A DNA stretch of 54,874 bases. It comes from a bacterium (lineage in GTDB: Bacteria > Patescibacteriota > Patescibacteriia > HK-STAS-PATE-3). The notes under the pieces are model-generated. The model was not told the DNA's origin. It did not search any database and saw only the letters and a program-made list of their open reading frames with translations. Positions 6,912 to 43,662 of the stretch are shown here, one piece after another (position 1 is the first letter of the stretch; every line of letters begins with the position of its first letter). A program made the position numbers and the translations under genes. Location: contig JAZDMR010000023.1 in NCBI GenBank assembly GCA_043800725.1, positions 1 to 54,874 of the forward strand. The letters run 5' to 3'.

Positions 6912-6969
6912 AAAAGTAACTTTGACATTCCCCTGGCCGCTAACGCGGCCGGGGGAATTTGGAAAAACT

Positions 6970-8004
6970 ATGTCCGGTAATATTAAAACAATCGCCTTTG
7001 TTGTACTGGTAAGCTCGTTAATCGCGGGTCAGTTTGTTTATGCTCAGGGGGTTGAAAAACCCAGTCAACTTTTTGTGCCTATTGTCGATTTAGAAATCAT
7101 CGGTTTAAATAAGATTTCCGCGGACAGCGTTACTGTTTTAACGATTAATTTTACTGTCAGTGAATACCCGATAACTGACGCAGTGTTGGATTTTACCTTG
7201 CCTGAGATGGTATTATTTGATTTTGCTAGCGGAACGGGCCAAATCAGTCAAGATAATATTATTACTTGGCACTACGAAAGCTTAGCCCCCGGTAATTATA
7301 CTGAAACTGTTTCAATAAGCCCGGTCTCACCTATTGCCAACGCAACAGAACTAGAATTTGACTCAAGCCTGTACTCCCGCGAAACCGTGGCTATCACGGA
7401 TACTTTCGTGATGACTGTCTTATCGGTCCCGCTCCTTAAAGTAATTAAAACTATCACGCCGACTTCCCTTTCTGCCGGAGAGCAAGCTGTCATCAGCGTT
7501 GAAATTTCCAATCAAGGAACTGATTCAGCCGAGAACGTGACAGTTACGGAAATTACATCTAATCAAATAGAAATAACCAACAGCGAAAAAACCAGAAAAA
7601 TCGGACAAATACCCGCTAACACGTCACAAACAATAGACTTTCAAATACGCTTAATATCAAATTCAAGCTCTGAGACAATTTCAACCGAAACAGTCATCAC
7701 TGCCGATAATCACGAAAAATTACTAGCCCTGGCTGATGTAAAAATAATTCCTGAGATTGTCTTGGTGCCTGAAGTCCAGGAACTTGAAAATATATTGAAG
7801 CCTGATGAGATAGCCACACCAGTGACAGAACAGATTGAACCATCTTCGACAGGTCAAGTTCTGGGCGCATCAACAAGCGCGGATGGATTAACTGAAACGG
7901 GAATCGGCTTCCGGGACTGGTTAACTGTCTTTGTTGCCACGTTTCTGATTACTGCTGGTATTACGACTTTACTTTTTTACCCATTCTCAAAAAACGGAAC
8001 TTAA
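6970..8004 (+). CDS. DUF11-like surface protein with an LTETG sorting signal
   Basis: ATG at 6970 with a GGGGGAA RBS (the ORF-track start at 6922 is a non-ATG extension). The C-terminus is LTETG followed by a hydrophobic helix. Confidence 0.7.
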   Translation: MSGNIKTIAFVVLVSSLIAGQFVYAQGVEKPSQLFVPIVDLEIIGLNKISADSVTVLTINFTVSEYPITDAVLDFTLPEMVLFDFASGTGQISQDNIITWHYESLAPGNYTETVSISPVSPIANATELEFDSSLYSRETVAITDTFVMTVLSVPLLKVIKTITPTSLSAGEQAVISVEISNQGTDSAENVTVTEITSNQIEITNSEKTRKIGQIPANTSQTIDFQIRLISNSSSETISTETVITADNHEKLLALADVKIIPEIVLVPEVQELENILKPDEIATPVTEQIEPSSTGQVLGASTSADGLTETGIGFRDWLTVFVATFLITAGITTLLFYPFSKNGT

Positions 8005-8007
8005 ACT

Positions 8008-8718
8008 ATGCCAGAGTTGAAACGCTCAGCCCCGGGGGAGGCTAACAAACCAATGCCCTCGGACCGTCTGAAAACTGCTAGGCCAATTTCGCCTACCCGT
8101 CATAAAATCATCAAAGCCGCAGCCATAACCTTAATTATTATCGGAGCTGTCATCTTAATATATCCATTTGTGCCGATAATCCGCTATGAAATTTTCCAGC
8201 CGGATCCGGTTTATCCATACGCTACTCTGTTGACAAATACCGAACAAACAGACAATCTAGAAATTCCTACTGAGCACCTGCCTTCTATTGAAAATAAGCT
8301 ACCTGATGCCAGCCGCTTGGTAATACCGAAAATCGGAGTGAATATGCCAATTGTGGAAGGTGAGAATGAAAAGGCACTATTTCGGGGTTCTTGGCGCGTC
8401 CCTGAAACCTCTACCCCTGATAACGGCGGTAATACGGTATTAACAGTTCATAGATTTCAGTATTTAGCCGGTCCAAACACTTTAGCGCTGGCTGACCGCT
8501 TAGAGGTGGGAGATTTAATTATTGTTTACTGGAAATCGGCAGACGACACCATTACAGAGTTTGATTATCGTATCTCAAAGACTTACCTTGTGGAACCCAA
8601 TCAAGTTGAAATACTTGATAACACGGTGGAAACTAAGCTAACATTATTTACTTGCGCTCCAATGTTCTCAACTAAAAATAGATTGGTGATAGAGGGGTCA
8701 CCGATAGAAAATCCTTAA
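8008..8718 (+). CDS. sortase (cysteine transpeptidase)
   Basis: N-terminal TM helix, catalytic His context LTVHRF, TLFTC Cys motif and a downstream Arg (NRLVIEG). Confidence 0.85.
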   Translation: MPELKRSAPGEANKPMPSDRLKTARPISPTRHKIIKAAAITLIIIGAVILIYPFVPIIRYEIFQPDPVYPYATLLTNTEQTDNLEIPTEHLPSIENKLPDASRLVIPKIGVNMPIVEGENEKALFRGSWRVPETSTPDNGGNTVLTVHRFQYLAGPNTLALADRLEVGDLIIVYWKSADDTITEFDYRISKTYLVEPNQVEILDNTVETKLTLFTCAPMFSTKNRLVIEGSPIENP

Positions 8719-11585: not shown

Positions 11586-11915
11586 TTAAGATAAACCCAT
11601 TTGAGAAGGCTGAAATTCCTCCCATTCATGAGTTGTTTCGTTAAATTTTAACGCCTTTAAAAAGTCTACTTGATCATCTTTGGAAAATATTTTTTCGATT
11701 TGCACGTCGCTTCCGATTCTTTTAGAACCTATTGCTTTTTCGCCCACCACACGATCTCTGGTCGTACGCTCGAGTTTGATCCTACCTAATGGAGAATTAA
11801 CGATTACGCTATGAACTTGTCCATGACCATCTTCCAAAGGTTCGGTAGACTCATCAACCACCTCAAACTTTTCTCTCATCATTTCCAATATTTCTTGCCA
11901 GCGCTCTTCTTTCAT
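11586..11915 (-). CDS. hypothetical protein
   Basis: 109-aa ORF in the operon orientation with no recognised motif. Confidence 0.45.
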   Translation of the reverse strand: MKEERWQEILEMMREKFEVVDESTEPLEDGHGQVHSVIVNSPLGRIKLERTTRDRVVGEKAIGSKRIGSDVQIEKIFSKDDQVDFLKALKFNETTHEWEEFQPSQMGLS

Positions 11916-15980: not shown

Positions 15981-17075
15981 TTATCGATTCCTATTTACAC
16001 TCAAATCAGAGATAACGGACAGCATATTAGCACATTTTTTATTAATATGTCGAGATCTGGCAATCGTAGTTTTTCCTTTTTGGGCAAGATTTATCGCTTG
16101 TTTTTTAATAAATGATAAAGCTGGCGTTTGACCAACCAGACTTCTGATTTGATCAACCTCGCGGGTATTTCGATGTTCTTTTTTAATTAACAAATCCAGC
16201 TTTTTGCGATCCTTGGTCTTTAAATATTTACGAGCTTTTAGGATTATTGCAGAAATTTTACCTTCTTTTATGTCGTTAGACGATTTTCCCGATTCTTTGC
16301 TGCCGATGAAGCCGATAATATCATCGACTAATTGAAAACCAATTCCTACTGGCACTGAATATTTGGTCAGCGTTCTACGAGTACTTTGACTAGCACCAGC
16401 GAATACCGCTCCAATTTGCAATGGTCCGTTAAAAGTATAATACGCTGTTTTATATTCAGCAATTTTTTCTACTAGTTTGCTGTTAACCCGCCTCTGCCAG
16501 GTCTGCTCAACATCCATAAACTGCCCAACAAGGGTGTATTCAAGCAAGTTCTTATAAACCTCGTCTAAGCTCTGCCTTATCTTGTCATCAGGCCAGGTGG
16601 ATTTAATAAAAACTTTATAGGCTAAATTTGAAGCATAATCGCCAATTAAGATGGCTAAAGCTACTCCTCGAAACCGCCTCTCCTGGGTACTGCCGGATAA
16701 TTTCCGACGGAATGCTTCATGAACAGTCGGACCGCCTCGCCTTAATTCATCACGATCAATAATATCATCGTGAATTAACAGATAACTATGAATTAATTCA
16801 ACTGCCGCTGATATGTCAGCCAGCTTTTTGGGAGGACGTTTTCCAGATGACTGATAACCCAGTTTTACTAAATAAGCTCTAATCCTCTTACTGGCCGATC
16901 TCATAGTAAATTCCTCTAGTTGATGAAAGCCCTCTCGAAGCGAGGGTGAAGTATTTCCAATACTCTTGCGTTCATTTTGGAAAATTATCCATAATCTTTT
17001 TTCAACAATTTTTTTCCAATCTGCCAAATCAGCCAGGCATGCGTTAATATCAGTCTTGGATTGATTATTCATCAA
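15981..17075 (-). CDS. trans-polyprenyl diphosphate synthase
   Basis: Two aspartate-rich motifs: LIHDDIIDRD and VDDIIG. Confidence 0.8.
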   Translation of the reverse strand: MMNNQSKTDINACLADLADWKKIVEKRLWIIFQNERKSIGNTSPSLREGFHQLEEFTMRSASKRIRAYLVKLGYQSSGKRPPKKLADISAAVELIHSYLLIHDDIIDRDELRRGGPTVHEAFRRKLSGSTQERRFRGVALAILIGDYASNLAYKVFIKSTWPDDKIRQSLDEVYKNLLEYTLVGQFMDVEQTWQRRVNSKLVEKIAEYKTAYYTFNGPLQIGAVFAGASQSTRRTLTKYSVPVGIGFQLVDDIIGFIGSKESGKSSNDIKEGKISAIILKARKYLKTKDRKKLDLLIKKEHRNTREVDQIRSLVGQTPALSFIKKQAINLAQKGKTTIARSRHINKKCANMLSVISDLSVNRNR

Positions 17076-17132
17076 TTATTTATTAGTCAATTACTAATCA
17101 GGAAATACTTATACGTTTTTATTGTGCCGATT

Positions 17133-17205
17133 CCCTCATCGAACGTTTGGGACTGATGAGATTAAGCGTGAGAAGGGAGATGCGCTGTATGATCTCTTCT
17201 TTCCA
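17133..17205 (+). repeat. tRNA-end element family, truncated copy A (5' domain only)
   Basis: CCTCATCGAACGTTTGGG..ATTAAGCGTGAGA matches the conserved 5' module of the full copies. Confidence 0.6.
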
Positions 17206-17300
17206 ATACCGAACACTTGGGGCCGATAGGATTAAGTGTGAGGAATAAAGGAGCATGCTTGCGAAGGGTGAAGTCCCGATGTACGTTTAGAATACACTCT
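17206..17300 (+). repeat. tRNA-end element family, degenerate copy B
   Basis: CCGAACACTTGGGGCCGATAGGATTAAGTGTGAGG plus CATGCTTGCGAAGGGTGAAG. P2 is compensated (ACACTT/AAGTGT), and the 3' strand of the long-range helix is missing. Confidence 0.6.
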
Positions 17301-17459
17301 CCCTCATCGAACACTTGGGCCCGTCCTCCGAAGCTACGCTTCGTAGGAGCGGAGCTAGGGTTAAGCGTGAGATGAATAAGGGACATCCTTCCTAAGGACG
17401 AAGTGGGCTCGACTTTTTCGAGTACACGTAGTTCGCAGGAAGAGATGGCCCGCGACCCG
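17301..17459 (+). ncRNA. tRNA-end element family, full copy C abutting tRNA-Pro (strand tentative)
   Basis: Carries the conserved module and all helices of the family. Its last base is adjacent to the TGG (CCA complement) of tRNA-Pro. It has an extended P2 cap hairpin. Confidence 0.6.
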
Positions 17460-17536
17460 TGGTCGGGCTGGTGGGACTTGAACCCACGACCTCGTCGACC
17501 CGAACGACGCGCGCTAGCCAACTGCGCTACAGCCCG
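17460..17536 (-). tRNA. tRNA-Pro (anticodon CGG), CCA encoded
   Basis: The reverse complement folds as CGGGCTG-TA-GCGC-AGTTGGCTA-GCGC-G-CGTCG-TTCGGGT-CGACG-AGGTC-GTGGG-TTCAAGT-CCCAC-CAGCCCG-A-CCA. Confidence 0.95.
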
Positions 17537-17567
17537 TTATTTTAAACTAGCCTCAACCATAGACTGA

Positions 17568-17599
17568 TCCGCCTAAGGCGGAAACTGCGCTACAGCTCG
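17568..17599 (-). repeat. GC hairpin plus a duplicated 5' 17 nt of tRNA-Pro
   Basis: TCCGCC-TAA-GGCGGA hairpin (17568-17582), followed by AACTGCGCTACAGCTCG (17583-17599), which is 16/17 identical to tRNA positions at 17520-17536. Confidence 0.8.
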
Positions 17600-17723
17600 T
17601 AATAATTTTACAGCTCAATTACATATTTTTTAAAAAGCCTAGTATGATATTCCAGAAAAAGCTAAATAAGTGTACGAAATACAAAACTTTTGGTCAAGCC
17701 TTGTTTGATTAGAAAATACTGGT

Positions 17724-18383
17724 CTACCCAGAAAAGGATAGCGTTTTGGCAATTTCGGTAAAAATTAAATAATCATTCATATCAGCTGCAGAATCCGTAA
17801 ACACAGTAAACAAAAAGCTGCCACGTACAAAAGTATAGCCTTTATTTTGGTTGCCGATAGTCAGCTTGTTTGCAATCAGCTTGGAACCAAGTTCTTCTGT
17901 TTCATCAAGTTGCCGATAGTCTAGACTGAAAAATACCTGCTCTTTTTTATCAGCTGGAATAACTTGAATTACTGCTAAGCGATTTGAGTCAGAATACAGA
18001 GTCCATTCATTATAGATGTTTTGCCTCGTATTACTTGTACTAGTATAAGTGTAATTGTCTTGTTCTGCATATTCAACAGTGTAGCCAAACTCAAGACTGT
18101 GATACTTTGTCAAATCTTGAGTTTTTATGGCAGTGTCTGTATTAGTGAAGGTAGCGTTGGTCGCAACTGACTGATTGGTATTACTGGTTGCTGGATTTAC
18201 ATTTGTATCGGAAGCAGCCGGGTTATCTGTCGTGTTGGTTATCGTATCATTAGCCGCTGATTTATTGGTAGCATAATAATATGCCAATCCTGCAATTATT
18301 AATACTACAGCAATTAAGCCAAACCATATCCAAGTCATTGACCTCGGTTTTTGTGGCGATGGATTTAAAGCATCTCCATTCAT
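17724..18383 (-). CDS. membrane-anchored hypothetical protein (N/T-rich linker)
   Basis: 219-aa ORF with one N-terminal TM helix. Confidence 0.5.
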   Translation of the reverse strand: MNGDALNPSPQKPRSMTWIWFGLIAVVLIIAGLAYYYATNKSAANDTITNTTDNPAASDTNVNPATSNTNQSVATNATFTNTDTAIKTQDLTKYHSLEFGYTVEYAEQDNYTYTSTSNTRQNIYNEWTLYSDSNRLAVIQVIPADKKEQVFFSLDYRQLDETEELGSKLIANKLTIGNQNKGYTFVRGSFLFTVFTDSAADMNDYLIFTEIAKTLSFSG

Positions 18384-36219: not shown

Positions 36220-36293
36220 TGGCAGGGGCGGAAGGTGTCGCACCCTCGTTGCCGGTTTTGGAGACCGGTGTTCTACTGTTGAACTACGCCCCC
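36220..36293 (-). tRNA. tRNA-Trp (anticodon CCA), CCA encoded, with non-canonical D- and T-loops
   Basis: GGGGGCG-TA-GTTC-AACAGTA-GAAC-A-CCGGT-CTCCAAA-ACCGG-CAAC-GAGGG-TGCGACA-CCTTC-CGCCCCT-G-CCA. The acceptor pairs fully (G1.U72). The D-loop lacks GG, and the T-loop is TGCGACA rather than TTCRANN. Confidence 0.8.
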
Positions 36294-36536
36294 ATCATCG
36301 ATGTTGGACAATCAAATATTTTTAGCACGTATCGCGCTGTTGTTCAATGGTGGGCTTCACACATGAGTCGCGTTCGATACTCCGTACCCCTGGCAGGGGA
36401 AAAGCGGCTCGAACTACATGGGTCGCCCCTCGTGTATTATTTCGGAAATATGGAGAAAATTCAATAGCTTCGGAAACTGATTTGACTTGATACTATTATT
36501 CATATATAATCTCATATAGTCATTATATATGATACT

Positions 36537-37589
36537 ATGGACCGTAGAGAACAGCGAATCGCAAGTATTCCCCAACACATCTGGTCGCTGGTCAATCAAA
36601 TTGATCAGTTGAAAGGCCAATGGATCGGCGGGGCTCAATTAAACCCCCAGGCACTCGGGCGGCTGAAGCGTTCGGTTTTGGTTACGTCGAGCGGTGCCTC
36701 CACCCGTATTGAAGGAGTAAAATTGTCAGATGAGGACGTGGAAAAGCTCATGCGCGGACTTTCGATTACCAAATTCGCCGACCGGGACAAGCAGGAAGTC
36801 TGGGGATACTACGAACTCCTTGAAAATGTCTTCAATTCCTGGAAGCACATTCCGTTTACGGAGAGCACAATCAAGCACTTCCACAAGGAGCTCTTGAAGC
36901 ACGTGAACAAGGATGCGCTGCATCGAGGTGAATATAAGACTTCGGAGAACAGCGTGGAGATATTCGACGAGAACGGAAAATCGCTCGGGGTCATCTTCAA
37001 AACGATTCCGGCCTATCTCACTCCGAAGCGAATGCAGGAATCGGTAGAATGGACGCGATGGGCCTTGAAGGAAGAGACACAGCATCCACTATTCCTCATG
37101 GCGAACTTCATTGTCGAGTTTCTCGCTATTCACCCGTTCCAGGACGGGAACGGCCGGCTCGCGCGCATTCTCACGAATCTGCTCATGTTGAAAAGCGGCT
37201 ACGCCTATGTGCCGTACGTTTCCCATGAAAAACTTGTGGAAGACAACAAGGCCGATTACTATGTCGCGCTCCGGAGAAGCCAGATAACATTCGGTACTAC
37301 GAAGGAAACAATCGCGCCCTGGCTTGAGTTCTTTCTGGCCATTGCACTTACCCAAGCCCGCCAGGCGATTAATCTGCTCTCCCGTGAGAATATCGAGAAG
37401 CTGCTGTCCCCGAAACAACTCGCGGTTTGGCAGTATCTTGAGCAGGTTACGGAAGCGACGCCAGGACAAATTGCGAAAGCGGCTCACGTCGCTCGTCCGA
37501 CCGTGTCGCAGGCACTAGAGGTATTGTTACGCCTGAAGAAAATCGAGCGGATCGGGCAGGGCAGGACGACGCGGTATCGGAGGCAATAG
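36537..37589 (+). CDS. Fic-family protein (probable AMPylase) with an N-terminal inhibitory motif and a C-terminal wHTH
   Basis: Fic core HPFQDGNGRLARIL, upstream SxxxEG-type motif (ASTRIEGV) and a C-terminal HTH-like QIAKAAHVARPTVSQALEVLLRLKKIERIGQGRTTRY. Confidence 0.9.
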   Translation: MDRREQRIASIPQHIWSLVNQIDQLKGQWIGGAQLNPQALGRLKRSVLVTSSGASTRIEGVKLSDEDVEKLMRGLSITKFADRDKQEVWGYYELLENVFNSWKHIPFTESTIKHFHKELLKHVNKDALHRGEYKTSENSVEIFDENGKSLGVIFKTIPAYLTPKRMQESVEWTRWALKEETQHPLFLMANFIVEFLAIHPFQDGNGRLARILTNLLMLKSGYAYVPYVSHEKLVEDNKADYYVALRRSQITFGTTKETIAPWLEFFLAIALTQARQAINLLSRENIEKLLSPKQLAVWQYLEQVTEATPGQIAKAAHVARPTVSQALEVLLRLKKIERIGQGRTTRYRRQ

Positions 37590-37600
37590 AGATAATTTGT

Positions 37601-37855
37601 ATGGCAAAGAAGGTAAAGGCTCTTCATGCGCTCAATTGGTACTACGGCAACATCTGCTCGCGGAAGTGCCCGGAAGAGAAGCAGAAAAGCCACTACGACC
37701 GCATGCACGAGATCATCAAAGGGCACGGAGAGTTTCTTATTACCCATACAATGTTCATCAAGGTCATGTATAACAAGTACCACGTTTGCGGATTAAGCGA
37801 CGAGGAACTTCGACGGCCGACTCGGGATTTCTGGAGACTGAAGTGTCTTCCATGA
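37601..37855 (+). CDS. 84-aa Cys/His-rich hypothetical protein
   Basis: Starts 12 nt after the Fic stop, and its TGA overlaps the ATG of the next gene (ATGA at 37852-37855). It has 4 Cys and 7 His. Confidence 0.55.
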   Translation: MAKKVKALHALNWYYGNICSRKCPEEKQKSHYDRMHEIIKGHGEFLITHTMFIKVMYNKYHVCGLSDEELRRPTRDFWRLKCLP

Positions 37856-40008
37856 TTACTATCACAGACGAACAGCTCGCGCTCTATCAGTCGCTGTTTC
37901 GCGGACGTACCGATGTGTATGCGAAACGGTGGGAAAAGAACGGACGGTCCGGATATTACCCTGCCTATCAGTTCGATTGGGCCGAGTTTCTCATCCACCA
38001 GCGTCGCGGCGGAAATATGGCAACGTTCGAAGGCAAGACCCCGCTTCCGTTGACGCCTGACGTGGTCAAAAAGCACCTGATCGGGCAGTACACCGTAGGA
38101 GTGTATCCGTTACTCAAAAACAATACCTCATACTTCATTGTTGCCGACTTCGATGGTCCCCAGGCGTTCGATGACGCAAAGAAGCTGGTCAAAGCCTGCA
38201 GCGAACTTCGACTTCCCGCGTATATTGAGCGATCCCGTTCGGGCAACGGTGCGCATGTGTGGTTATTCTTCGAAAATGCGTTCCCGGCTGCCCGAAGCCG
38301 CATGATTATGCTTGAGTGTGTGCGCAAAGCACTGGGAATGTCCGCTTTCGAAAAGGAGGTATCATTCGACCGGCTGTTCCCGAATCAAGACATGCAAAGC
38401 GGAAAGGGGTTCGGTAACCTGATCGCGCTTCCTCTCCAGGGTATATCTCTCGGACAAGGGAATACTATTTTCCTTGACCCGAAAACACAGGCTCCATATC
38501 CCGACCAGTGGGTATTTCTCCCAACAATTCACCGAATTCCTTCGAGGACGCTGGACCAAGTATTTGATACGATCGTGCGAGGTGACATGAGCGCTACGAC
38601 GGACGCCGCATCGACCGGGAAAATCACTCTTCGCCTTGATTCAGGGATTCGCACAGCAAAAGTCCGGCTCGATAAGGAAACGGTCAGCTTTCTTCGGGAG
38701 GAATTGAATTTCCCCAATCTCGACTACTGGCTGAAACGCAAGCTCGGCAAGAGCACATATCAGACGGATAAGTTTTTCCGATTGATCGACGAGGAAGGAG
38801 AAGATGTTGTCCTGCCCCGGGGTTTTCTTTCCAAACTCACTGACCATTTCCGGATGCGGGGAATACCGTTTGTCATCCATGACAAGAGATCAGTACTGCC
38901 CGAAGTCACCTTCTCCTCCGCGATTGAGCTACGACCGTCTCAAGTCGGCCTCGTCGAGCAAGCAACGGAGTCCGACCAGGGCGTTCTTGTTGCACCGCCC
39001 GGGAGCGGGAAGACGGTTATGGGCCTTCAGCTTATCGCCCGCCGGAAACAACCGGCGCTGATTCTCACGCACCGGAAGCAGATCATGGACCAGTGGATCG
39101 GGCGCATCCAAGAATTTCTCGGGATACCGAAAGCGCACATCGGCCGGATTGACGGCGTGAAGAAAACAATCGGTGACAAAATCACTGTCGCGATGTTGCA
39201 GAGCATGAACCGTCGGGAGGACGCGAGCAAAATTCGTAACCGTTTCGGAACAATCGTCATTGACGAGTGCCAGCACCTTCCCGCAAAAACATTTCGCGAA
39301 GTTGTTTCTCATTTGAATGCCCGGTACTGCTATGGATTAACAGCAACACCGAAACGCAAGCACAACGACGAAAAACTCATTTATCTCTTCATCGGAGATA
39401 TTATTGCGGAACTGCCGGAGCAACTATCCGTTTCCAAGACGACCGAAGGGAATACGTCCGTTGCCGTACGTTCGGTGATTATCCACGAAACCGGACTTGA
39501 GATTCCATTCTCATTCACTGCCGACGACTACCAACTGCTGGCGCGTATTGTCTCGTTCGATCAGACTCGTAACCGTCTTGTCCTGAACGACATCCGTCAT
39601 TCCGTCGGGTTCGGATTGAAAACACTGGTGTTAAGCGAGAGAAAAGAACATCTGGAAGTGTTGCGCCTCTATCAAAAAGGGATCGCCGAATCCATCCTCA
39701 TCACTGGCGACGACTCCCTTGCATCGCGGAAAAGCAAATTTGCCCAGATTGCTTCCGGCCACTATCAGATTCTCTTCGCAACCGGGCAACTCCTCGGAGA
39801 AGGACTGGATCTTCCCGATATTCAAGCGGTTATCCTCGCATTTCCGCTCGCGTTTGAAGGAAAGCTCGCGCAATACATCGGACGCATCCGGAGCGACAAT
39901 AAGACCGTCTATGACTATCATGATGCGAAAACACCGTTTCTTGATCGTCAATTCAAAAAACGAAAAAAGTTCTATGAGAAGAACGGCTTTATCCTAACTG
40001 GTTCTTAA
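37852..40008 (+). CDS. AEP-type primase-polymerase domain fused to an SF2 (DExH) helicase
   Basis: N-terminal half: FRGRTDVYAKRWE, YFIVADFDG (DxD) and SRSGNGAHVWLFF (SGxGxH). C-terminal half: APPGSGKT, VIDECQH, GLTATPKR and QYIGRIRS. The start is set at the ATG coupled to the upstream ORF; the track ORF starts at 37786. Confidence 0.8.
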   Translation: MITITDEQLALYQSLFRGRTDVYAKRWEKNGRSGYYPAYQFDWAEFLIHQRRGGNMATFEGKTPLPLTPDVVKKHLIGQYTVGVYPLLKNNTSYFIVADFDGPQAFDDAKKLVKACSELRLPAYIERSRSGNGAHVWLFFENAFPAARSRMIMLECVRKALGMSAFEKEVSFDRLFPNQDMQSGKGFGNLIALPLQGISLGQGNTIFLDPKTQAPYPDQWVFLPTIHRIPSRTLDQVFDTIVRGDMSATTDAASTGKITLRLDSGIRTAKVRLDKETVSFLREELNFPNLDYWLKRKLGKSTYQTDKFFRLIDEEGEDVVLPRGFLSKLTDHFRMRGIPFVIHDKRSVLPEVTFSSAIELRPSQVGLVEQATESDQGVLVAPPGSGKTVMGLQLIARRKQPALILTHRKQIMDQWIGRIQEFLGIPKAHIGRIDGVKKTIGDKITVAMLQSMNRREDASKIRNRFGTIVIDECQHLPAKTFREVVSHLNARYCYGLTATPKRKHNDEKLIYLFIGDIIAELPEQLSVSKTTEGNTSVAVRSVIIHETGLEIPFSFTADDYQLLARIVSFDQTRNRLVLNDIRHSVGFGLKTLVLSERKEHLEVLRLYQKGIAESILITGDDSLASRKSKFAQIASGHYQILFATGQLLGEGLDLPDIQAVILAFPLAFEGKLAQYIGRIRSDNKTVYDYHDAKTPFLDRQFKKRKKFYEKNGFILTGS

Positions 40009-40054
40009 AAACCATCGTCGGTAGACACTCGGGTCGCACGATAACATTTCATCC

Positions 40055-40128
40055 CCGCAGAGGCAGAGGGAATCGAACCCCCGTTTCAGGTTTTGGAGAC
40101 CCGTGTTCTGCCACTGAACTACACCCCC
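40055..40128 (-). pseudogene. tRNA-Trp(CCA)-like gene with a non-pairing 3' acceptor strand (pseudo-tRNA or recombination junction)
   Basis: GGGGGTG-TA-GTTC-AGTGGCA-GAAC-A-CGGGT-CTCCAAA-ACCTG-AAAC-GGGGG-TTCGATT-CCCTC is followed by TGCCTCTGCGG instead of CACCCCC-N-CCA. Confidence 0.6.
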
Positions 40129-40888: not shown

Positions 40889-41263
40889 TTAATTGGATAT
40901 ATTCCTTTTACTAGCAAGATATTTAATAAACGCATTTAGACTTTTAAGTAGTTTTTCAAATTCGATATCTAGTTGTTGAGAAGTTTTTTTTATTAATGAA
41001 TTTAAGCCCCTTAGCTACTTTTATGTGACTTCTTGTTTCAAATATTTCTGCTCTTGCGATATATTATACTCGAATACGATCCGTATAGGAAAATCTTCCT
41101 TGGCTTTCTGCAATATTTGCAGTGATGCTGTTGGCAGATCGGCGAAGCTGGTTTGTTATTCATATTGCTCGGAAGAAGGGAAAGTACCGGTTACTTTATA
41201 GATCTCCATTGTCAGGTCATACGACAACTTCCAAACATCAAGTTTATTAAATGAATCAGGCAT
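40889..41263 (-). pseudogene. four-helix-bundle protein (23S rRNA intervening-sequence protein family), with a stop and frameshift
   Basis: MPDSFNKLDVWKLSYDLTMEIYKVTGTFPSSEQYE-stop, then other frames continue as ..ANSITANIAESQGRFSYTDRIR.. and ..LDIEFEKLLKSLNAFIKYLASKRN. This pattern is typical of the TIGR02436-like family as I remember it. Confidence 0.55.
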
Positions 41264-41293: not shown

Positions 41294-41323
41294 TAATAAA
41301 CCAATTTATTTTAGTTTAACCCG

Positions 41324-41398
41324 TGGAGCCGGAGAGAGGATTCGAACCCCCGACCTTCACTTTACAAAAGTGTTGCTCTACCCCTGAGCTACTCCGGC
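41324..41398 (-). tRNA. tRNA-Thr (anticodon UGU), CCA encoded
   Basis: GCCGGAG-TA-GCTC-AGGGGTA-GAGC-A-ACACT-TTTGTAA-AGTGA-AGGTC-GGGGG-TTCGAAT-CCTCT-CTCCGGC-T-CCA. Confidence 0.9.
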
Positions 41399-41404
41399 GT
41401 ATTG

Positions 41405-41755
41405 TTAATTAATTTCTAACCTCGGAATAATATCAATGGGCGGTTCTTCATAAGGGTGGGCTGCTTTTAAGGCTTTAACTACTTCCTCTACTTTATCTTT
41501 GTGGCATAGTGTTTCGATCACTTCTTCCTCAACTTCTTCCAGCTTGCCTACCTCGCCAATACTGGGACTCGCACCTTGCTGAGGAATATATCGACCGATC
41601 GAAGTATGTGAACCGCTGGCATGAGAATAATTTCCTTGCACGCCGGCACCAGCATCACCCAAAGCTTTCCGCATCTTGTCTGCCTCCGCCTTAGGCACAG
41701 CTGTTTGAATTTTCACGTAATCTGATTCTCGTAGTAACATATTAATCTCCCCCAT
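41405..41755 (-). CDS. stand-alone Nif3/YqfO PII-like insert-domain protein (COG3323-like)
   Basis: GAGVQGNYSHASGSHTSIGRYIPQQGASPSIGEVGKLEEVEEEVIETLC..AHPYEEPPIDI resembles the YqfO insert domain. The true start may be the internal MLLRES, because the first codons overlap the repeat element. Confidence 0.6.
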   Translation of the reverse strand: MGEINMLLRESDYVKIQTAVPKAEADKMRKALGDAGAGVQGNYSHASGSHTSIGRYIPQQGASPSIGEVGKLEEVEEEVIETLCHKDKVEEVVKALKAAHPYEEPPIDIIPRLEIN

Positions 41756-41867
41756 CGAACGCTTGGGCCCGTAGGGTTAAGCGTGAGATGGAAAGGGGCA
41801 TGCGCCGTAAGGGCGAAGCAGAAGCGACTTGTTCGCTTCTACGCAGTCCGCACGGCGCAATGACCCG
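41751..41867 (+). ncRNA. tRNA-end element family, full copy abutting the tRNA-Tyr-like 3' fragment (strand tentative)
   Basis: CCATCGAACGCTTGGGCCCGTAGGGTTAAGCGTGAGATGG plus the second domain. Its last base is adjacent to the TGG at 41868. Confidence 0.6.
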
Positions 41868-42026
41868 TGGTGGGCCGAGTAGGATTCTCCCGCACAATAT
41901 TGTTTTTGAAGCGGTTTGCGGGATCCCGCTATGACGCGGGAGAACCTACGAAGGCGTAAGCCAGCAGATTTATGCCGCCTTGGGCGGCACCCCGCCAAAG
42001 GCGGTGGCAGTCTGCCCTCAACTCCC
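41868..42026 (-). pseudogene. 3' two-thirds of a second tRNA-Tyr gene (B), with a 35-nt anticodon-loop insertion and a 54-nt T-loop insertion
   Basis: Outside the insertions at 41973-42007 and 41888-41941, the sequence from the anticodon loop to the T-arm is identical to tRNA-Tyr at 42029-42114. The acceptor 3' strand is TCGGCCC-A-CCA. Confidence 0.7.
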
Positions 42027-42374
42027 TCTGGTGGGTGGAGTAGGATTCGAACCTACGAAGGCGTAAGCCAGCAGATTTACAGTCTGCCCCTGTTGACCGC
42101 TTAGGTATCCACCCACCAGAGAGATTTGAATTATTTTTTTAATAAGCTTCTTAATGGCTTCTCCACCTTTGTATGATTTGATTTGTCGTTCGCGCTGATA
42201 TGCTTTATTGCGCGATTGGAAGCTCTCGTAATATATCAGTTTCCATGGAATTCCAGATTTTGTGGAACGCACCTCACCTTTATTATGATCCTTTATTCTT
42301 TCCTTGAGATCTTCCGTCGAACCAACATAGTATCTGCCAATTCTTTCACTTTTGAGAATATAGGTTTTGTACAT
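42018..42374 (-). CDS. small GIY-YIG nuclease-domain protein (ORF reads through tRNA-Tyr)
   Basis: MYKTYILKSERIGRYYVGSTEDLKERIKDHN..YQRERQIKSYKGGEAIKKLI is a GIY-YIG/URI-domain pattern. There is no stop until 42018, so the last ~35 codons overlap the tRNA gene. The track start is at 42404. Confidence 0.7.
   Translation of the reverse strand: MYKTYILKSERIGRYYVGSTEDLKERIKDHNKGEVRSTKSGIPWKLIYYESFQSRNKAYQRERQIKSYKGGEAIKKLIKKIIQISLVGGYLSGQQGQTVNLLAYAFVGSNPTPPTRGS
42029..42114 (-). tRNA. tRNA-Tyr (anticodon GUA), long variable arm, CCA encoded
   Basis: GGGTGGA-TA-CCTA-AGCGGTCAA-CAGG-G-GCAGA-CTGTAAA-TCTGC-TGGCTTACGCCTTC-GTAGG-TTCGAAT-CCTAC-TCCACCC-A-CCA. Confidence 0.9.
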
Positions 42375-42417
42375 ACAACTACATTCAAATTTTATCGTCT
42401 TCATCTAGAATAATAGA

Positions 42418-42505
42418 AGTCTGCCCCGTTTTCCCGCCACTGAATTAATTAATATTGGTTGGCGGGACCCCGCAGAATGCGGTGGGACCGCTTCGGTATC
42501 GACCC
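42418..42505 (-). pseudogene. 5' third of tRNA-Tyr gene B (acceptor to U33), with a 54-nt D-loop insertion
   Basis: GGGTCGA-TA-CCGA-AGCGGTC-[54 nt at 42432-42485]-AAAC-GGGGCAGACT. GGGTCGA pairs with the TCGGCCC strand at 41872-41878, a compensated 5:68 pair relative to tRNA-Tyr at 42029-42114. Confidence 0.65.
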
Positions 42506-42535
42506 AAGTTAAGTTATTATGTGATGATCAAGGCG

Positions 42536-42653
42536 ACCGTCGAACGCTTGGGCCCGATAGGGTTAAGCGTGAGACGGAGAGGCACACTCTTGCGAAGGGC
42601 GCAGTGAAGACAACTTGTTTGTCTTCACGTAGCCCGTAGCAAGTGATGGGCCG
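42536..42653 (+). ncRNA. tRNA-end element family, full copy abutting tRNA-Thr(GGU) (strand tentative)
   Basis: CCGTCGAACGCTTGGGCCCGATAGGGTTAAGCGTGAGACGG plus the second domain. Its last base is adjacent to the TGG at 42654. Confidence 0.6.
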
Positions 42654-42729
42654 TGGAGCCCACGAGCAGACTTGAACTGCTGACCTACTCCTTACCATGG
42701 AGTTGCTCTACCAGCTGAGCTACGTGGGC
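42654..42729 (-). tRNA. tRNA-Thr (anticodon GGU), CCA encoded
   Basis: GCCCACG-TA-GCTC-AGCTGGTA-GAGC-A-ACTCC-ATGGTAA-GGAGT-AGGTC-AGCAG-TTCAAGT-CTGCT-CGTGGGC-T-CCA. Confidence 0.95.
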
Positions 42730-42785
42730 ATGATTATTTATACTAGGTTAATTGTGCCTAATAAATATCAAATGATTATGTAAAT

Positions 42786-42798
42786 CCGTCGAACACTT
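42786..42798 (+). repeat. orphan 13-nt start motif of the tRNA-end element
   Basis: CCGTCGAACACTT equals the P1 5' strand, GA and P2 5' strand of the family, with nothing further. Confidence 0.35.
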
Positions 42799-42801
42799 AG
42801 A

Positions 42802-43662
42802 CTATAATGCTTTAACCTGCGCTTCGTATTCCGGTAATCGATTATTTTCCGGATTAACCTCTTTTAGTTTATTAAATGTTCTAAGTGCTAAAAGTTTCTT
42901 TTTTGCTTCTATGGCTAGTTCCAGCGTACCGCTTAAAAACTTGGGATTATTGGGCATCAGCTTCAGGGCTGACTGACAGCTCTCGACAGCTTCATCATAC
43001 CTAGCCAAACCCTTAAAAGCCATACATAGATCATACCTTAAACAAGCTACTTGATTATTATACCCACCATATGTTTCAGCTTGTCCGCTACGGAATAATC
43101 GAGGACCCTTAACTCGATACTTACGAGTTCCCAGATCAATAGCATGAGTAAAAACTTCTCGGGCATGGTCATAATCTTTCATTTTCAAATAAATATCACC
43201 CAGCAACTCATAAGCATCTAAACTCTTTGGCTCTATGGCAATCACTTCAATACACCTTTGTTCGGCTTCTGTATATTTTTCCTCCTTCTCCAGCCCTCGA
43301 GCTTCTTCAAGCAACAATACCACCTTTTTCTGTGATTCGGCTCTCTGGGTAGGGCTGTTTAATTCTTGCGACTTTTTTCTATATTCTCTCTCAATCGATC
43401 GTAATTTTGCATATATTTGACGCGCAGATTGCCGTCCTTTTTGAATTTGCTTTCCAATCCGACCCAGAGTCTGTGATTGAAAATCACTAAACTTCCTTTG
43501 CAGCCTTTGCTCGATTATCACATTTCTGGTGCGAGCGTTTCGTTCACTGGTTATCGACTGGGTATTAATCGCTTTGAGTTTAGGCATTTTACGTATCAGA
43601 ATAGCAGCAATAATCCCCAGCCCGATAATAGCGATAAAAATTAGAACGAAGTCTAGAACCAT
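42802..43662 (-). CDS. membrane-anchored TPR-repeat protein
   Basis: N-terminal TM helix, a coiled/charged segment and TPR-like repeats (AYELLGDIYLKMKDYDHAREVF..). Confidence 0.65.
   Translation of the reverse strand: MVLDFVLIFIAIIGLGIIAAILIRKMPKLKAINTQSITSERNARTRNVIIEQRLQRKFSDFQSQTLGRIGKQIQKGRQSARQIYAKLRSIEREYRKKSQELNSPTQRAESQKKVVLLLEEARGLEKEEKYTEAEQRCIEVIAIEPKSLDAYELLGDIYLKMKDYDHAREVFTHAIDLGTRKYRVKGPRLFRSGQAETYGGYNNQVACLRYDLCMAFKGLARYDEAVESCQSALKLMPNNPKFLSGTLELAIEAKKKLLALRTFNKLKEVNPENNRLPEYEAQVKAL

Follow-up and report, generated by a model that had tools for sequence, protein, structure and literature searches.

A structured non-coding element fused to the CCA end of tRNA genes in Patescibacteria, and its possible spread as a mobile element

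Introduction

Several described systems come close to the element reported here, and each of them shares some of its features. Small repeats such as REP/BIME, Rickettsia palindromic elements (RPE), Correia/NEMIS and other MITEs are likewise short, non-coding, multi-copy and lineage-restricted, with a structure marked by compensatory changes, a variable presence and a tolerance for positions in or beside RNA genes. The palindrome-associated elements of the IS200/IS605 type (PATE), which move by “peel and paste”, insert in one orientation right 3' of a short fixed sequence, produce no target duplication and carry hairpins at both ends. Integron attC sites also keep a fold rather than a sequence, have unpaired or bulged bases and a variable loop, and stand at the 3' end of a gene unit. 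Moreover, some RNAs are matured from tRNA 3' trailers, including E. coli 3'ETS-leuZ, plant tRNA-snoRNA and MHV68 tRNA-miRNA; these share the tRNA's promoter and lie directly downstream of it, as does the present element, which may likewise be transcribed from the tRNA promoter and would obtain its 5' end from tRNA 3' processing. Finally, the reverse transcriptase of the Neurospora Mauriceville/Varkud retroplasmid joins sequence exactly at the mature tRNA CCA-3' end (PMC9925561). Retroplasmid and retroviral tRNA priming resembles our case in that the DNA shows a CCA which the gene itself need not encode.

Here we analyzed a 54.9-kb stretch of Patescibacteria DNA, referred to as the window, together with retrieved sequences from related genomes (designated by L numbers).

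Results

Copies and relics in the window

The element is a non-coding unit of about 115–120 nt with two hairpin domains, in which pairing rather than sequence is kept. A covariance model trained on seven copies was searched over the whole window and recovered the three full copies that an earlier note, made from the sequence alone, had described. The copy at the CCA of tRNA-Thr(GGU) (42536–42653) scored 126.1 bits (E 2e-23), and the reference copy (41751–41867), which adjoins the CCA of a broken tRNA-Tyr, scored 121.6 bits. The copy adjoining tRNA-Pro(CGG) (17301–17452) was matched over 17310–17452 with 76.3 bits, and has a hairpin of about 32 nt inserted in its domain A cap (about 17323–17354). 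Read on the + strand, the reference copy comprises domain A (41752–41791, with P1 CCATC/GATGG, a tandem GA/GA, P2 ACGCTT/AAGCGT and a cap), the linker AAA (41792–41794), domain B (41795–41866) and a final G at 41867. No Pfam match was obtained for the open reading frames crossing the copies (17162–17521, 41777–41998, 41742–41897 and 42528–42698); the earlier note had called the first two spurious.

The same model found two degenerate copies beyond the Pro copy. Pro_b (17205–17278, 40 bits) aligns over domain A and the 5' part of domain B and has lost the tRNA-proximal part, while the oldest copy, Pro_a (17135–17191, 23.3 bits), aligns over domain A and only the start of domain B. The remaining matches with E < 1 were weak (21–30 bits) and lay on the reverse strand over the three full copies, so the 54.9 kb hold no further copies. 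Two shorter relics were recognized by comparison with relatives. The sequence CCGTCGAACACTTAG (42787–42801) is the tRNA-distal end of a copy that is deleted here and kept in a sister species (L007, 2109–2155; 35 bits, cut by the contig end). The sequence CGGGTTAAA (41315–41323, minus strand) stands immediately 3' of the CCA of tRNA-Thr(UGU) and is probably what remains of the start of a copy; in L027 the CCA of the same tRNA is followed directly by CGGGTCAAAG and a full copy.

The junction with CCA

All three tRNA genes joined to full copies lie on the minus strand. tRNA-Thr(GGU) occupies 42654–42729, and its CCA is fused to the element. The reference copy is fused to the CCA of the 3' part of tRNA-Tyr “B” (41868–42017), a relic that runs from the anticodon stem to CCA and contains hairpin insertions in the anticodon loop and the T loop; another tRNA-Tyr gene is called nearby (42029–42114, minus strand). 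tRNA-Pro(CGG) occupies 17460–17536, with CCA encoded. The earlier note reported no spacer at any of the three junctions. This is true of the Thr and Tyr copies, where the last base of the element is a G (42653 and 41867, respectively) and the TGG encoding CCA comes next. At Pro, in contrast, the newest copy reaches its canonical end GATGGCCCG at 17452, where the model match stops, and 17453–17459 intervenes before TGG. These seven nucleotides, CGACCCG, repeat the terminal heptamer, so that an element-type terminus touches TGG here too, only not that of the newest copy; the heptamer is probably left from the tRNA-proximal end of an older copy.

Across the window and its relatives, an element terminus touches the TGG encoding CCA in seven of eight full copies, namely Pro, Thr(GGU) and Tyr-B in the window, Thr(GGU) in L007, Tyr and Trp in L014, and Thr(UGU) in L027. 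The sole exception is Tyr-B of L007, in which a secondary hairpin insertion of 70 nt separates the two. This insertion is flanked by CCAC repeats, and thus the element copy is still directly preceded by a CCA, though a duplicated one, as an insertion of the PATE kind would have it. The orientation is identical in all copies, with the base of domain B, the long hairpin, fused to the CCA of the tRNA gene.

The tRNA-Pro gene of the sister species L024 is 100% identical to that of the window and carries neither CCA nor the element: after GCCCGA, L024 continues with CAGAGGG and the window with CCA and then CGGG. This suggests that CCA may travel with the element, at this one locus and in a clade where most tRNA genes encode CCA anyway. 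A faint remnant of domain A, CCCAAACG, is perhaps present in the L024 spacer; if so, L024 would represent a deletion and not an empty site.

Fold and covariation

Shuffle tests on both strands gave z values of -5.8 to -7.6, and 0 of 200 shuffles folded as well. In the alignment 94.3% of the cells pair, compared with 32–44% after the partners are shifted. Both sides differ in 23 of 40 pairs, and none of 500 shuffles attained these values. These figures bear out the earlier proposal that selection acts on a fold and not on a protein. RNAalifold independently yielded the same two-domain fold. Domains A and B show no kinship in sequence or shape. At its foot the long hairpin has either GGG/CCC or GGC/GCC, alternatives linked by a compensatory change, and next to these comes a purine-purine mismatch (A.G or G.A) that is invariant. 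Two further structural details of the earlier note had to be corrected. The stretches regarded there as conserved and unpaired form an invariant motif, G.A / N-N' / A.G, whose middle pair covaries (AU, GC, UA, CG). A supposed GGGCC pseudoknot is not supported: relatives have unrelated sequences in place of the cap hairpin, and the partner of the 3' tail is the 5' strand of domain B. In all copies the first bases of the element could also pair with the acceptor 3' strand of the tRNA; this is not needed, since these bases covary with domain B's own 5' strand.

The two strands are not equivalent. In the + sense the invariant mismatches are G.A/A.G and the conserved unpaired bases purine-rich, whereas in the tRNA sense the mismatches become C.U/U.C and the unpaired bases pyrimidine-rich. 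The consensus energy is -54.8 kcal/mol in the + sense versus -50.8 kcal/mol in the tRNA sense, and the + sense folds better by 7–15 kcal/mol in all four independent comparisons. Wobbles in domain B are near balance, with 7 G.U on the + strand versus 8 A.C, or 7 versus 3 without ambiguous bulge columns. In the tRNA sense, pairing begins at +2 in every copy. According to GC skew, the better-folding + strand is the leading-strand template, and the lagging-strand template is the strand on which the element follows CCA.

Distribution and turnover

Homologues were found in three other Patescibacteria genomes (L007, L014 and L027), and the positional link to tRNA 3' ends seen in the window holds in all of them. 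Altogether, five tRNA species carry the element in four related genomes: Thr(GGU), Thr(UGU), Tyr, Pro and Trp. No copy was seen at any site in the retrieved loci L009–L011, L015, L017–L023 and L028–L031, L018 and L029 among them, and judging from these sequences the element appears restricted to a small group of Patescibacteria. Even within this group its presence varies from site to site. There are three copies at tRNA-Pro in the window versus none in L024; tRNA-Trp has the element in L014 and not in the window; tRNA-Thr(GGU) has it in the window and L007 and not in L014; and tRNA-Thr(UGU) has it in L027, a relic of it in the window and none in L007, L014 and L029.

Where copies form arrays, the full copy is beside the tRNA and truncated older copies are farther out. 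The partial copies all keep domain A, have lost the tRNA-proximal half of domain B at scattered truncation points, and sit distal to the full copy. About eight full copies in four genomes are known. Each copy of an array is most closely related to the others of that array, so duplication in place explains the arrays without transposition. Caps and P1 sequences are in part peculiar to a genome and domain B to a locus, as if copies had exchanged sequence with one another. The loops of the element tolerate hairpin insertions.

Between the window and L007 (1847–1968), domain B of the orthologous Thr(GGU) copy is 84% conserved, with compensatory changes, versus 52–58% for neutral spacers. We did not take the 93% identity of the Tyr copy between the same genomes as purifying selection. 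A whole block, which starts at GIY-YIG, takes in tRNA-Tyr A and the Tyr-B relic and extends to domain B, is about 90–100% identical, against 78% for the neighbouring ORF, so this block may have been exchanged recently.

Database searches

In Rfam 15, gathering-score matches in the whole window were confined to tRNAs, nothing relevant appeared between 41300 and 42900 at E <= 10, and L007, L014, L018, L024 and L027 gave only tRNAs at E <= 0.1. The element therefore does not belong to a known RNA family, as the earlier note had judged, and IS605-associated families are not matched either. Literature searches turned up no described equivalent. Distant blastn searches against phage and plasmid collections gave no match, nor did domain-A and domain-B patterns in viral contigs. 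Scanning metagenome contigs with the domain-A pattern returned six loci, of which L007 alone is genuine: the matches L003–L006 lie inside coding sequence reading as ABC ATPase, and L002 is probably a chance match. In genome contigs the same pattern gave one chance match, within coding sequence, which we take to read like CheA, of a Deltaproteobacteria MAG. This pattern was too strict. L027 is without a canonical domain A, and thus such scans underestimate the distribution. Among about 60 ORFs scanned in the window no reverse transcriptase, transposase or recombinase was found, and none was seen in the fetched flanks.

Discussion

Spread of the element

We tentatively prefer, ahead of the other readings but at somewhat less than even chances, a non-autonomous mobile element that is specific for tRNA 3' ends and spreads via a folded single-stranded intermediate. 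The earlier note had kept an element targeting tRNA ends as its fallback, and this now fits best, given the variable presence, the one site without element and CCA, the truncated copies and the relics. The fold would be selected because the single-stranded intermediate of propagation requires it. The junction could be made by joining at the RNA level, with a reverse transcriptase that jumps between the element transcript and the mature CCA-3' end of a tRNA, or that is primed by this end; the tRNA gene would then take up the tRNA-element product by recombination. Alternatively, a structure-guided single-stranded-DNA transposase may produce the same junction. We prefer RNA-level joining because the boundary is an RNA landmark, the mature CCA end, and not a DNA landmark, and because the occupied Pro gene carries a CCA that is missing from its empty L024 counterpart. 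Once inserted, the element would be part of one transcript, as 3' trailer of the tRNA and as 5' leader for the gene that follows. An enzyme that mobilises it is hypothetical, since neither the window nor the flanks encode a candidate. Further points count against mobility: the element has no terminal inverted repeats and no target-site duplication, the better-folding + strand has no obvious route to transcription, and the conservation of the Thr orthologue, judged from the alignment, also fits a host function.

Such a host function is the most serious competitor, although we consider it less probable. The element would be a cis-acting RNA module of tRNA-mRNA co-transcripts on the tRNA strand, and the processed RNA would start with the domain B hairpin, insulating or stabilising the downstream mRNA or directing tRNA 3' maturation; alternatively the helix may be an RNase III-type processing helix. 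In either case functional selection would hold the spacer at zero. In fact, each copy has a tRNA on one side and, downstream, a gene in the same orientation (ORF111, polyprenyl synthetase or GIY-YIG, rpmG in L027, and a 121-aa ORF in L014), and by sequence-based prediction neither a promoter-like nor a terminator-like site separates the two, while the opposite sense has no conserved promoter. The pairing from +2 in every copy also agrees with such a module, as do a hairpin pair inserted in L007 that likewise starts right after CCA, structured trailers at other tRNAs of the clade, a purine-rich, Shine-Dalgarno-like GGGAG run after domain A in five copies, and orthologous copies that are more conserved than spacers. 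However, a stabilising hairpin needs neither invariant internal loops nor a second domain, and the tRNA strand is the one with C.U/U.C mismatches, pyrimidine-rich unpaired bases and weaker folding. Sporadic presence, relics, truncated copies and the 70-nt junction insertion speak against an important function, and the arrival of homologous copies at five tRNAs, with exact junctions, would be left unexplained. As for the terminator module raised in the earlier note, an intrinsic terminator should show a GC-rich hairpin and a U-tract; no U-tract and no terminator-like site were found on either strand of 41300–42900 and 16900–17800.

Returning to mobility, a more specific version deserves mention, though we hold it to be unlikely. 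The element may be a retro-mobile RNA that uses the mature CCA-3' end as primer or template-switch acceptor, the fusions then returning to the chromosome. Two further observations would follow from the same RNA-level process, namely that GC-rich hairpins are inserted only in loops, those of tRNA genes and those of the element itself, and that a “graveyard” of broken tRNA copies surrounds the live ones. A retro-copied junction should bear CCA, and the occupied Pro junction does while the unoccupied L024 gene does not, at one locus only; no ORF in the window reads as a reverse transcriptase.

The element could also be a recombination site of folded single-stranded DNA, like integron attC or CTX attP, at the 3' end of tRNA gene “cassettes” that a tyrosine recombinase inserts, excises or replaces. 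Its mismatches, bulges and variable terminal hairpin do resemble the R box, unpaired spacer, L box, extrahelical bases and variable loop of attC, and again structure is kept while sequence varies. L007 has element, spacer, tRNA and element in series, each element at the end of a gene unit, and in the window the upstream unit is missing except for the last 9–15 nt or so of its element; tRNA genes of the clade show heavy turnover in general. Nevertheless, we judge this improbable: the ends lack GTTRRRY/RYYYAAC pairing, no integrase is encoded in the window or flanks, the two-domain architecture exceeds any known site in complexity, the truncation points are scattered and do not mark one crossover point, and the better-folding strand is the leading-strand template, opposite to attC usage.

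Still less can be said for a self-cleaving ribozyme on the tRNA strand, which the earlier note had considered and which would cut at its own 5' end to release the tRNA at CCA. A start exactly after CCA, a conserved fold and invariant internal-loop nucleotides would suit it. No HDV, hatchet, hammerhead, twister, pistol or other family was matched at E <= 10 (E <= 0.1 in relatives), however, and both covariation and RNAalifold give two independent hairpins on either strand, without a pseudoknot, which is neither the nested double pseudoknot of HDV nor the P1–P4 core of hatchet. Moreover, A76 would end in a 2',3'-cyclic phosphate after the cut, 70 nt lie between the L007 Tyr copy and its tRNA, and domain A is dispensable in L027. 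We rate just as low an independent small RNA read from the + strand, which would converge on the tRNA in antisense and might receive its 3' end from RNase P cutting a mirror-tRNA downstream. Against the better folding, the G.A/A.G mismatches and the purine-rich unpaired bases, as seen in structured RNAs, stand the lack of an upstream promoter-like site, upstream flanks that are unrelated between copies (antisense of ORFs, tRNA relics, other copies), transcription head-on into tRNA genes and the near balance of wobbles.

Under either of the two leading readings, mobile element or trailer module, the family is new, structured and strongly covarying, and Rfam does not contain it. If mobile, it would be, to our knowledge, the first bacterial element to insert at the exact mature tRNA 3' end, and if the retro-mobile version is true, the first bacterial chromosomal counterpart of the retroplasmid and retroviral use of tRNA 3' ends. 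As a trailer or leader module it would instead reveal how tRNAs are separated from downstream mRNAs by organisms with a reduced set of RNases. The element gives a sequence-defined handle on the rewriting of tRNA genes in ultra-small Patescibacteria genomes with striking tRNA turnover, and as its DNA boundary is an RNA processing site, RNA-mediated gene rewriting becomes directly testable.

Comparison with known systems

Several candidates were tried and set aside. The hammerhead motif CUGAUGAG occurs in one cap only and the three-way junction is missing; a K-turn would need a 3-nt bulge, which is missing; T-box, riboswitch and SRP RNA have no Rfam match. A retron msr/msd is contradicted by missing a1/a2 repeats and reverse transcriptase, and a TnpB/IscB guide-RNA scaffold by the lack of a nuclease gene and of an Rfam match.

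Unlike REP/BIME, RPE, Correia/NEMIS and MITEs, the element has no terminal inverted repeats or target-site duplication, folds into two domains with invariant purine-purine mismatches, occurs in very low copy number in the sequence examined, and shows absolute specificity for one position, the base next to tRNA CCA, in one orientation. In particular, a MITE was rejected because the ends CCATCGAAC... and ...ATGACCCG share just a weak CCATC/GATGG motif and the flanks show no duplication. With PATE the element shares, in addition, that the CCA-bearing strand is the lagging-strand template. However, the hairpins at its two ends are not related, the foot of the hairpin is just 1 nt away from the junction, and a 3-nt target alone cannot account for the restriction to tRNA ends; without similar subterminal hairpins, and with no Y1 transposase/TnpA or TnpB in the window, we did not assign it to this class.

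The integron attC differs by its R''/R' core (RYYYAAC...GTTRRRY) and its IntI, whereas the element has an extra long hairpin domain and its cargo would be tRNA genes. The 5' sequence ATCGAAC fits RYYYAAC at six of seven positions, but the 3' partner is GTGAGAT(GG) and not GTTRRRY, and no integrase domain of an IntI-type tyrosine recombinase was found among the roughly 60 window ORFs scanned. Retroplasmids and retroviruses are eukaryotic, organellar or viral and have their own reverse transcriptase, while the element lies in a bacterial chromosome with none in the window. Finally, the known RNAs from tRNA trailers are single-locus or host-specific, whereas the present element is a repeat family found at several tRNAs, with turnover and truncated copies.

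Copies and junctions in the window

ARAGORN and Rfam identified six minus-strand tRNAs in the window, including tRNA-Pro(CGG) (17460-17536), tRNA-Tyr (42029-42114) and tRNA-Thr(GGU) (42654-42729). The element, a non-coding repeat with two hairpin domains (A and B), was found at all three loci where the earlier note had placed it: 41751-41867, beside a broken second tRNA-Tyr gene (tRNA-Tyr 'B'), 42536-42653, beside tRNA-Thr(GGU), and 17301-17452, beside tRNA-Pro. The claimed zero spacer to TGG, the complement of the tRNA's CCA end, is correct at 41867 and 42653, where the final G is followed by TGG, but at the Pro locus the canonical element ends at 17452, not 17459; the intervening 17453-17459 (CGACCCG) repeats the element's terminal heptamer and looks like the stub of an older copy. 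The supposed tRNA-Tyr-like 3' fragment (41868-42017) is indeed a 3' tRNA part, not merely Tyr-like, however, but the 3' part of the second tRNA-Tyr gene.

A covariance model of the kind proposed in the earlier note was made from seven copies and run unfiltered over the whole window. It found the three full copies (126, 122 and 76 bits) and two degenerate ones in the Pro array, at 17205-17278 (40 bits) and 17135-17191 (23 bits). The only other matches below E = 1 were weak (21-30 bits), on the reverse strand over the three full copies. Two short conserved motifs matched exactly in the window six and five times, at element sites only. The element is a discrete unit, and the ORFs crossing its copies, earlier called spurious, have no Pfam match.

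Fold and strand

Read on the + strand, domain A starts with P1 (5 bp), which a tandem GA/GA loop separates from P2 (6 bp); an invariant GGG/TT follows, then a cap hairpin that varies between copies. In the long hairpin of domain B, the closing helix is GGG/CCC or GGC/GCC, and the mismatch next to it is invariantly A.G or G.A. Beyond it come 9 bp of helix interrupted by one bulged base, a 3x3 loop (NAA/GYA) and 4 more base pairs. The invariant motif G.A / N-N' / A.G, whose middle pair covaries, leads from there to the apical helix of 8-10 bp with its CUUGU-like loop.

Among seven copies, standard pairs occupy 94.3% of cells versus 32-44% with the 3' partners slid, both sides have changed in 23 of 40 pairs, and none of 500 shuffles did as well as the real alignment in pairing, number of double changes or covariation score. 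When only domain B is considered, in eight copies, pairing is 92.6% and 16 of 27 pairs have double changes. RNAalifold gives the same structure with none supplied, and z-scores for folding of single sequences lie between -5.8 and -9.0 for the + strand and between -3.8 and -7.5 for the - strand. The fold is under selection, as had been claimed. The GGGCC pseudoknot also put forward then is not supported: in relatives the cap is exchanged for hairpins unrelated to it, and the partner with which the 3' tail covaries is the 5' strand of domain B.

As RNA, the + sense (antisense to the tRNA) folds better by 6.8-15.5 kcal/mol in 4/4 independent comparisons; it also folds better as DNA in the two copies tested, and the RNAalifold consensus is -54.8 kcal/mol on + versus -50.8 on -. 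All invariant mismatches are purine-purine (G.A) on + and C.U if read on -, and the unpaired bases that are conserved are rich in purines on +. Against the + sense, domain B has almost equal wobble counts (7 versus 8, or 7 versus 3 leaving out ambiguous bulge columns), the copies do not share related upstream flanks, and no promoter-like site was found there on the + strand. In favour of the - sense, it would be the transcribed one, since every copy has a tRNA on one side and a co-oriented gene on the other and no terminator separates the two. The GC skew of the + strand is also negative, so the - strand would be the lagging-strand template.

Copies in relatives, gain and loss

The organism belongs to the Patescibacteria. 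Related loci were fetched via neighbouring proteins; homologues of the neighbouring 111-aa protein carry the names Patescibacteria, Magasanikbacteria and Nomurabacteria. Copies are present in three further genomes. The sister species S2 (loci L007, L008, L012 and L024), with neighbour proteins 72-89% identical to the window's, carries orthologous Thr(GGU) and Tyr-B copies, an additional truncated copy beside the Tyr copy, and another upstream of tRNA-Thr(GGU), where the window retains only a 15-nt relic. L014 (CP060223.1, a record named Candidatus Nomurabacteria bacterium, with its TPR protein at 57% identity) has copies immediately after tRNA-Tyr and tRNA-Trp, and a truncated one beyond the Tyr copy. 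L025-L027 (GCA_018824475.1) have a diverged copy directly after tRNA-Thr(UGU), its domain A shrunk to a plain hairpin. The element is absent from L018/L019 and L029, which have the same tRNAs.

The known set is only eight full copies from four genomes, at five tRNA species. Orientation is identical in all eight and an element terminus touches TGG in seven; the positional link to tRNA 3' ends holds in relatives too. In the eighth (S2 Tyr-B) a 70-nt double hairpin flanked by CCAC repeats intervenes, and CCA still precedes the element. If the element landed at random in a genome of ~1 Mb holding a few dozen tRNAs, the chance of one such junction would be about 1e-5. The junction is exact and orientation-specific at the five tRNA species.

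Presence varies between relatives at every locus. The Pro locus has three copies in the window and none in S2, the Trp locus has the element in L014 only, the Thr(GGU) locus has it in the window and S2 and lacks it in L014, and at the Thr(UGU) locus only L027 has a full copy, the window keeping a 9-nt relic (CCA|CGGGTTAAA) and the others nothing. The element acts as an insertion with turnover, being gained, lost and truncated and leaving relics. The tRNA-Pro genes of S2 and the window are 100% identical; the former is followed by CAGAGGG, without CCA or element, and the latter by CCA and then the element. This comparison appears to link the element to CCA, at a single locus and in a clade where most tRNA genes encode CCA; the S2 spacer may hold a faint element relic.

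The partial copies (four or five) all keep domain A, lack the tRNA-proximal half of domain B and are separated from the tRNA by a full copy. Array members have derived features in common, such as the AATAA linker of the Pro array, and caps and P1 are partly genome-specific whereas domain B is locus-specific, which points to local duplication and part exchange among copies. Hairpin insertions are tolerated in the cap, in the linker and at the junction.

tRNA gene turnover at the same loci

Loci with the element also show unusual tRNA gene turnover, with broken older copies flanking live tRNAs, and the two should best be studied jointly. The 5' part of tRNA-Tyr 'B' (42405-42510, minus) has a 53-nt double hairpin in its D loop and the 3' part (41868-42017, minus) has hairpins in its anticodon and T loops; with the insertions taken out, a perfect tRNA-Tyr(GUA) reassembles. 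Inside the split gene are a GIY-YIG ORF (from 42404) and the intact tRNA-Tyr 'A' (42029-42114), a layout shared by S2 (L007). The arrangement looks like a homing-endonuclease cassette bringing its own replacement tRNA. The GIY-YIG frame (42018-42404, - strand) stays open into the intact tRNA-Tyr gene and across it.

At least 12 GC-rich hairpin or double-hairpin insertions were found in relic tRNA genes, all in D, anticodon, variable or T loops and none in stems (rough chance of all-loop placement, 0.36^12). Hairpin insertions lie at 42405-42510, 41868-42017 and 17323-17354 in the window and at L012 1600-1784, L008 1040-1145, L018 7887-8050 and L027 4340-4600 in relatives. The loops of the 115-nt element hold the same kind of insertion, which suggests a process acting on folded single strands.

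Beside live genes, older versions of the same tRNA persist as 5' and/or 3' fragments, a 'tRNA graveyard' (window 17570-17600, with 18 nt from the 5' part of tRNA-Pro and a hairpin; L007 300-407; L018 6860-6959, 7690-7790 and 8700-9215; L027 4340-4628), which implies that tRNA genes have been replaced repeatedly in this clade. The two tRNA-Trp genes (36220-36293 and 40057-40128) are 79% identical, and only the first encodes CCA. Over 36220-40128 they bracket a + strand island with genes for a Fic-domain protein (36537-37589) and for a protein joining an AEP-TOTE primase and a helicase (37786-40008); the island probably integrated at tRNA-Trp. A four-helix-bundle gene of the 23S_rRNA_IVP/bAvd type adjoins tRNA-Thr(UGU) and rpmG in relatives (L008 1201-1563; L018 ~8110-8460; L025 6347-6700) and is a frame-broken pseudogene in the window (~40900-41263, - strand).

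Several live tRNAs of relatives lie within GC-rich leader/trailer inverted repeats that would lengthen the acceptor stem (L018 7773-7790 / 7867-7887 and 6943-6959 / 7036-7047; L014 11673-11689 / 11766-11780), possibly processing stems or the termini of inserted tRNA units. Two S2 assemblies (L008 62-147 versus L007 1301-1386) disagree over the 5' half of the live tRNA-Tyr. The L008 gene, without an upstream GIY-YIG, combines a 5' acceptor strand of B type (GGGTCGG) with a 3' strand of A type, giving a C.C mismatch; this points to recombinant tRNA alleles in the population.

Interpretation and comparison with known systems

We tentatively favour, at slightly under an even chance, a non-autonomous copy-and-insert element specific for tRNA 3' ends. 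A cis-acting module of tRNA-mRNA co-transcripts is a possible but less probable explanation. The gene order fits, orthologues show compensatory changes and the Thr orthologue is better conserved than spacers (84% versus 52-58%); after a cut at CCA, the downstream RNA would begin with a hairpin paired from +2, and in E. coli and B. subtilis mRNAs such 5'-terminal stem-loops protect from 5'-end-dependent decay. However, the module would leave unexplained the invariant loops, the second domain, the turnover and the origin of exact junctions at five tRNAs. The readings are not exclusive, as a trailer role can be taken on by a mobile element. It is improbable that the element is a recombination site of folded single-stranded DNA serving tRNA 'cassettes': the design is attC-like, but attC core boxes and an integrase are missing. 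We give very little credence to a 5'-cleaving ribozyme, which has nothing positive besides position, and equally little to a + strand small RNA, whose fold looks best but which lacks a route to expression.

For the tRNA-end mobile element, the fold would be needed in a single-stranded intermediate, and the boundary would be marked in RNA, by the mature CCA end, and not in DNA. Given this landmark and the joint presence of CCA and element at the Pro locus, joining at the RNA level by a reverse transcriptase would be the most economical source of the repeated junctions, although we consider it unlikely in itself. The enzyme of the Neurospora retroplasmid copies tRNAs and has a preference for acceptors with 3'-CCA (PMC9925561). 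No mobilising enzyme is encoded in the window.

In the window and relatives, Rfam 15 matched only tRNAs, in line with the motif having gone unrecognised in the earlier note, and no described equivalent was found in Rfam or the literature searched. Phage, plasmid and viral collections gave no match; the capped scans of sequence collections relied on a domain-A pattern, to which diverged copies would be invisible. Among known kinds, we rate the element with small structured repeats or trailer RNAs; if the retro route is true, it could be categorically new. Alternatively, a structure-guided single-stranded-DNA transposase of the IS200/IS605 kind could mobilise it. The element resembles that family in insertion 3' of a fixed motif, absence of target duplication, hairpin ends and the lagging-strand template, but differs in its dissimilar ends and a target of only 3 nt.
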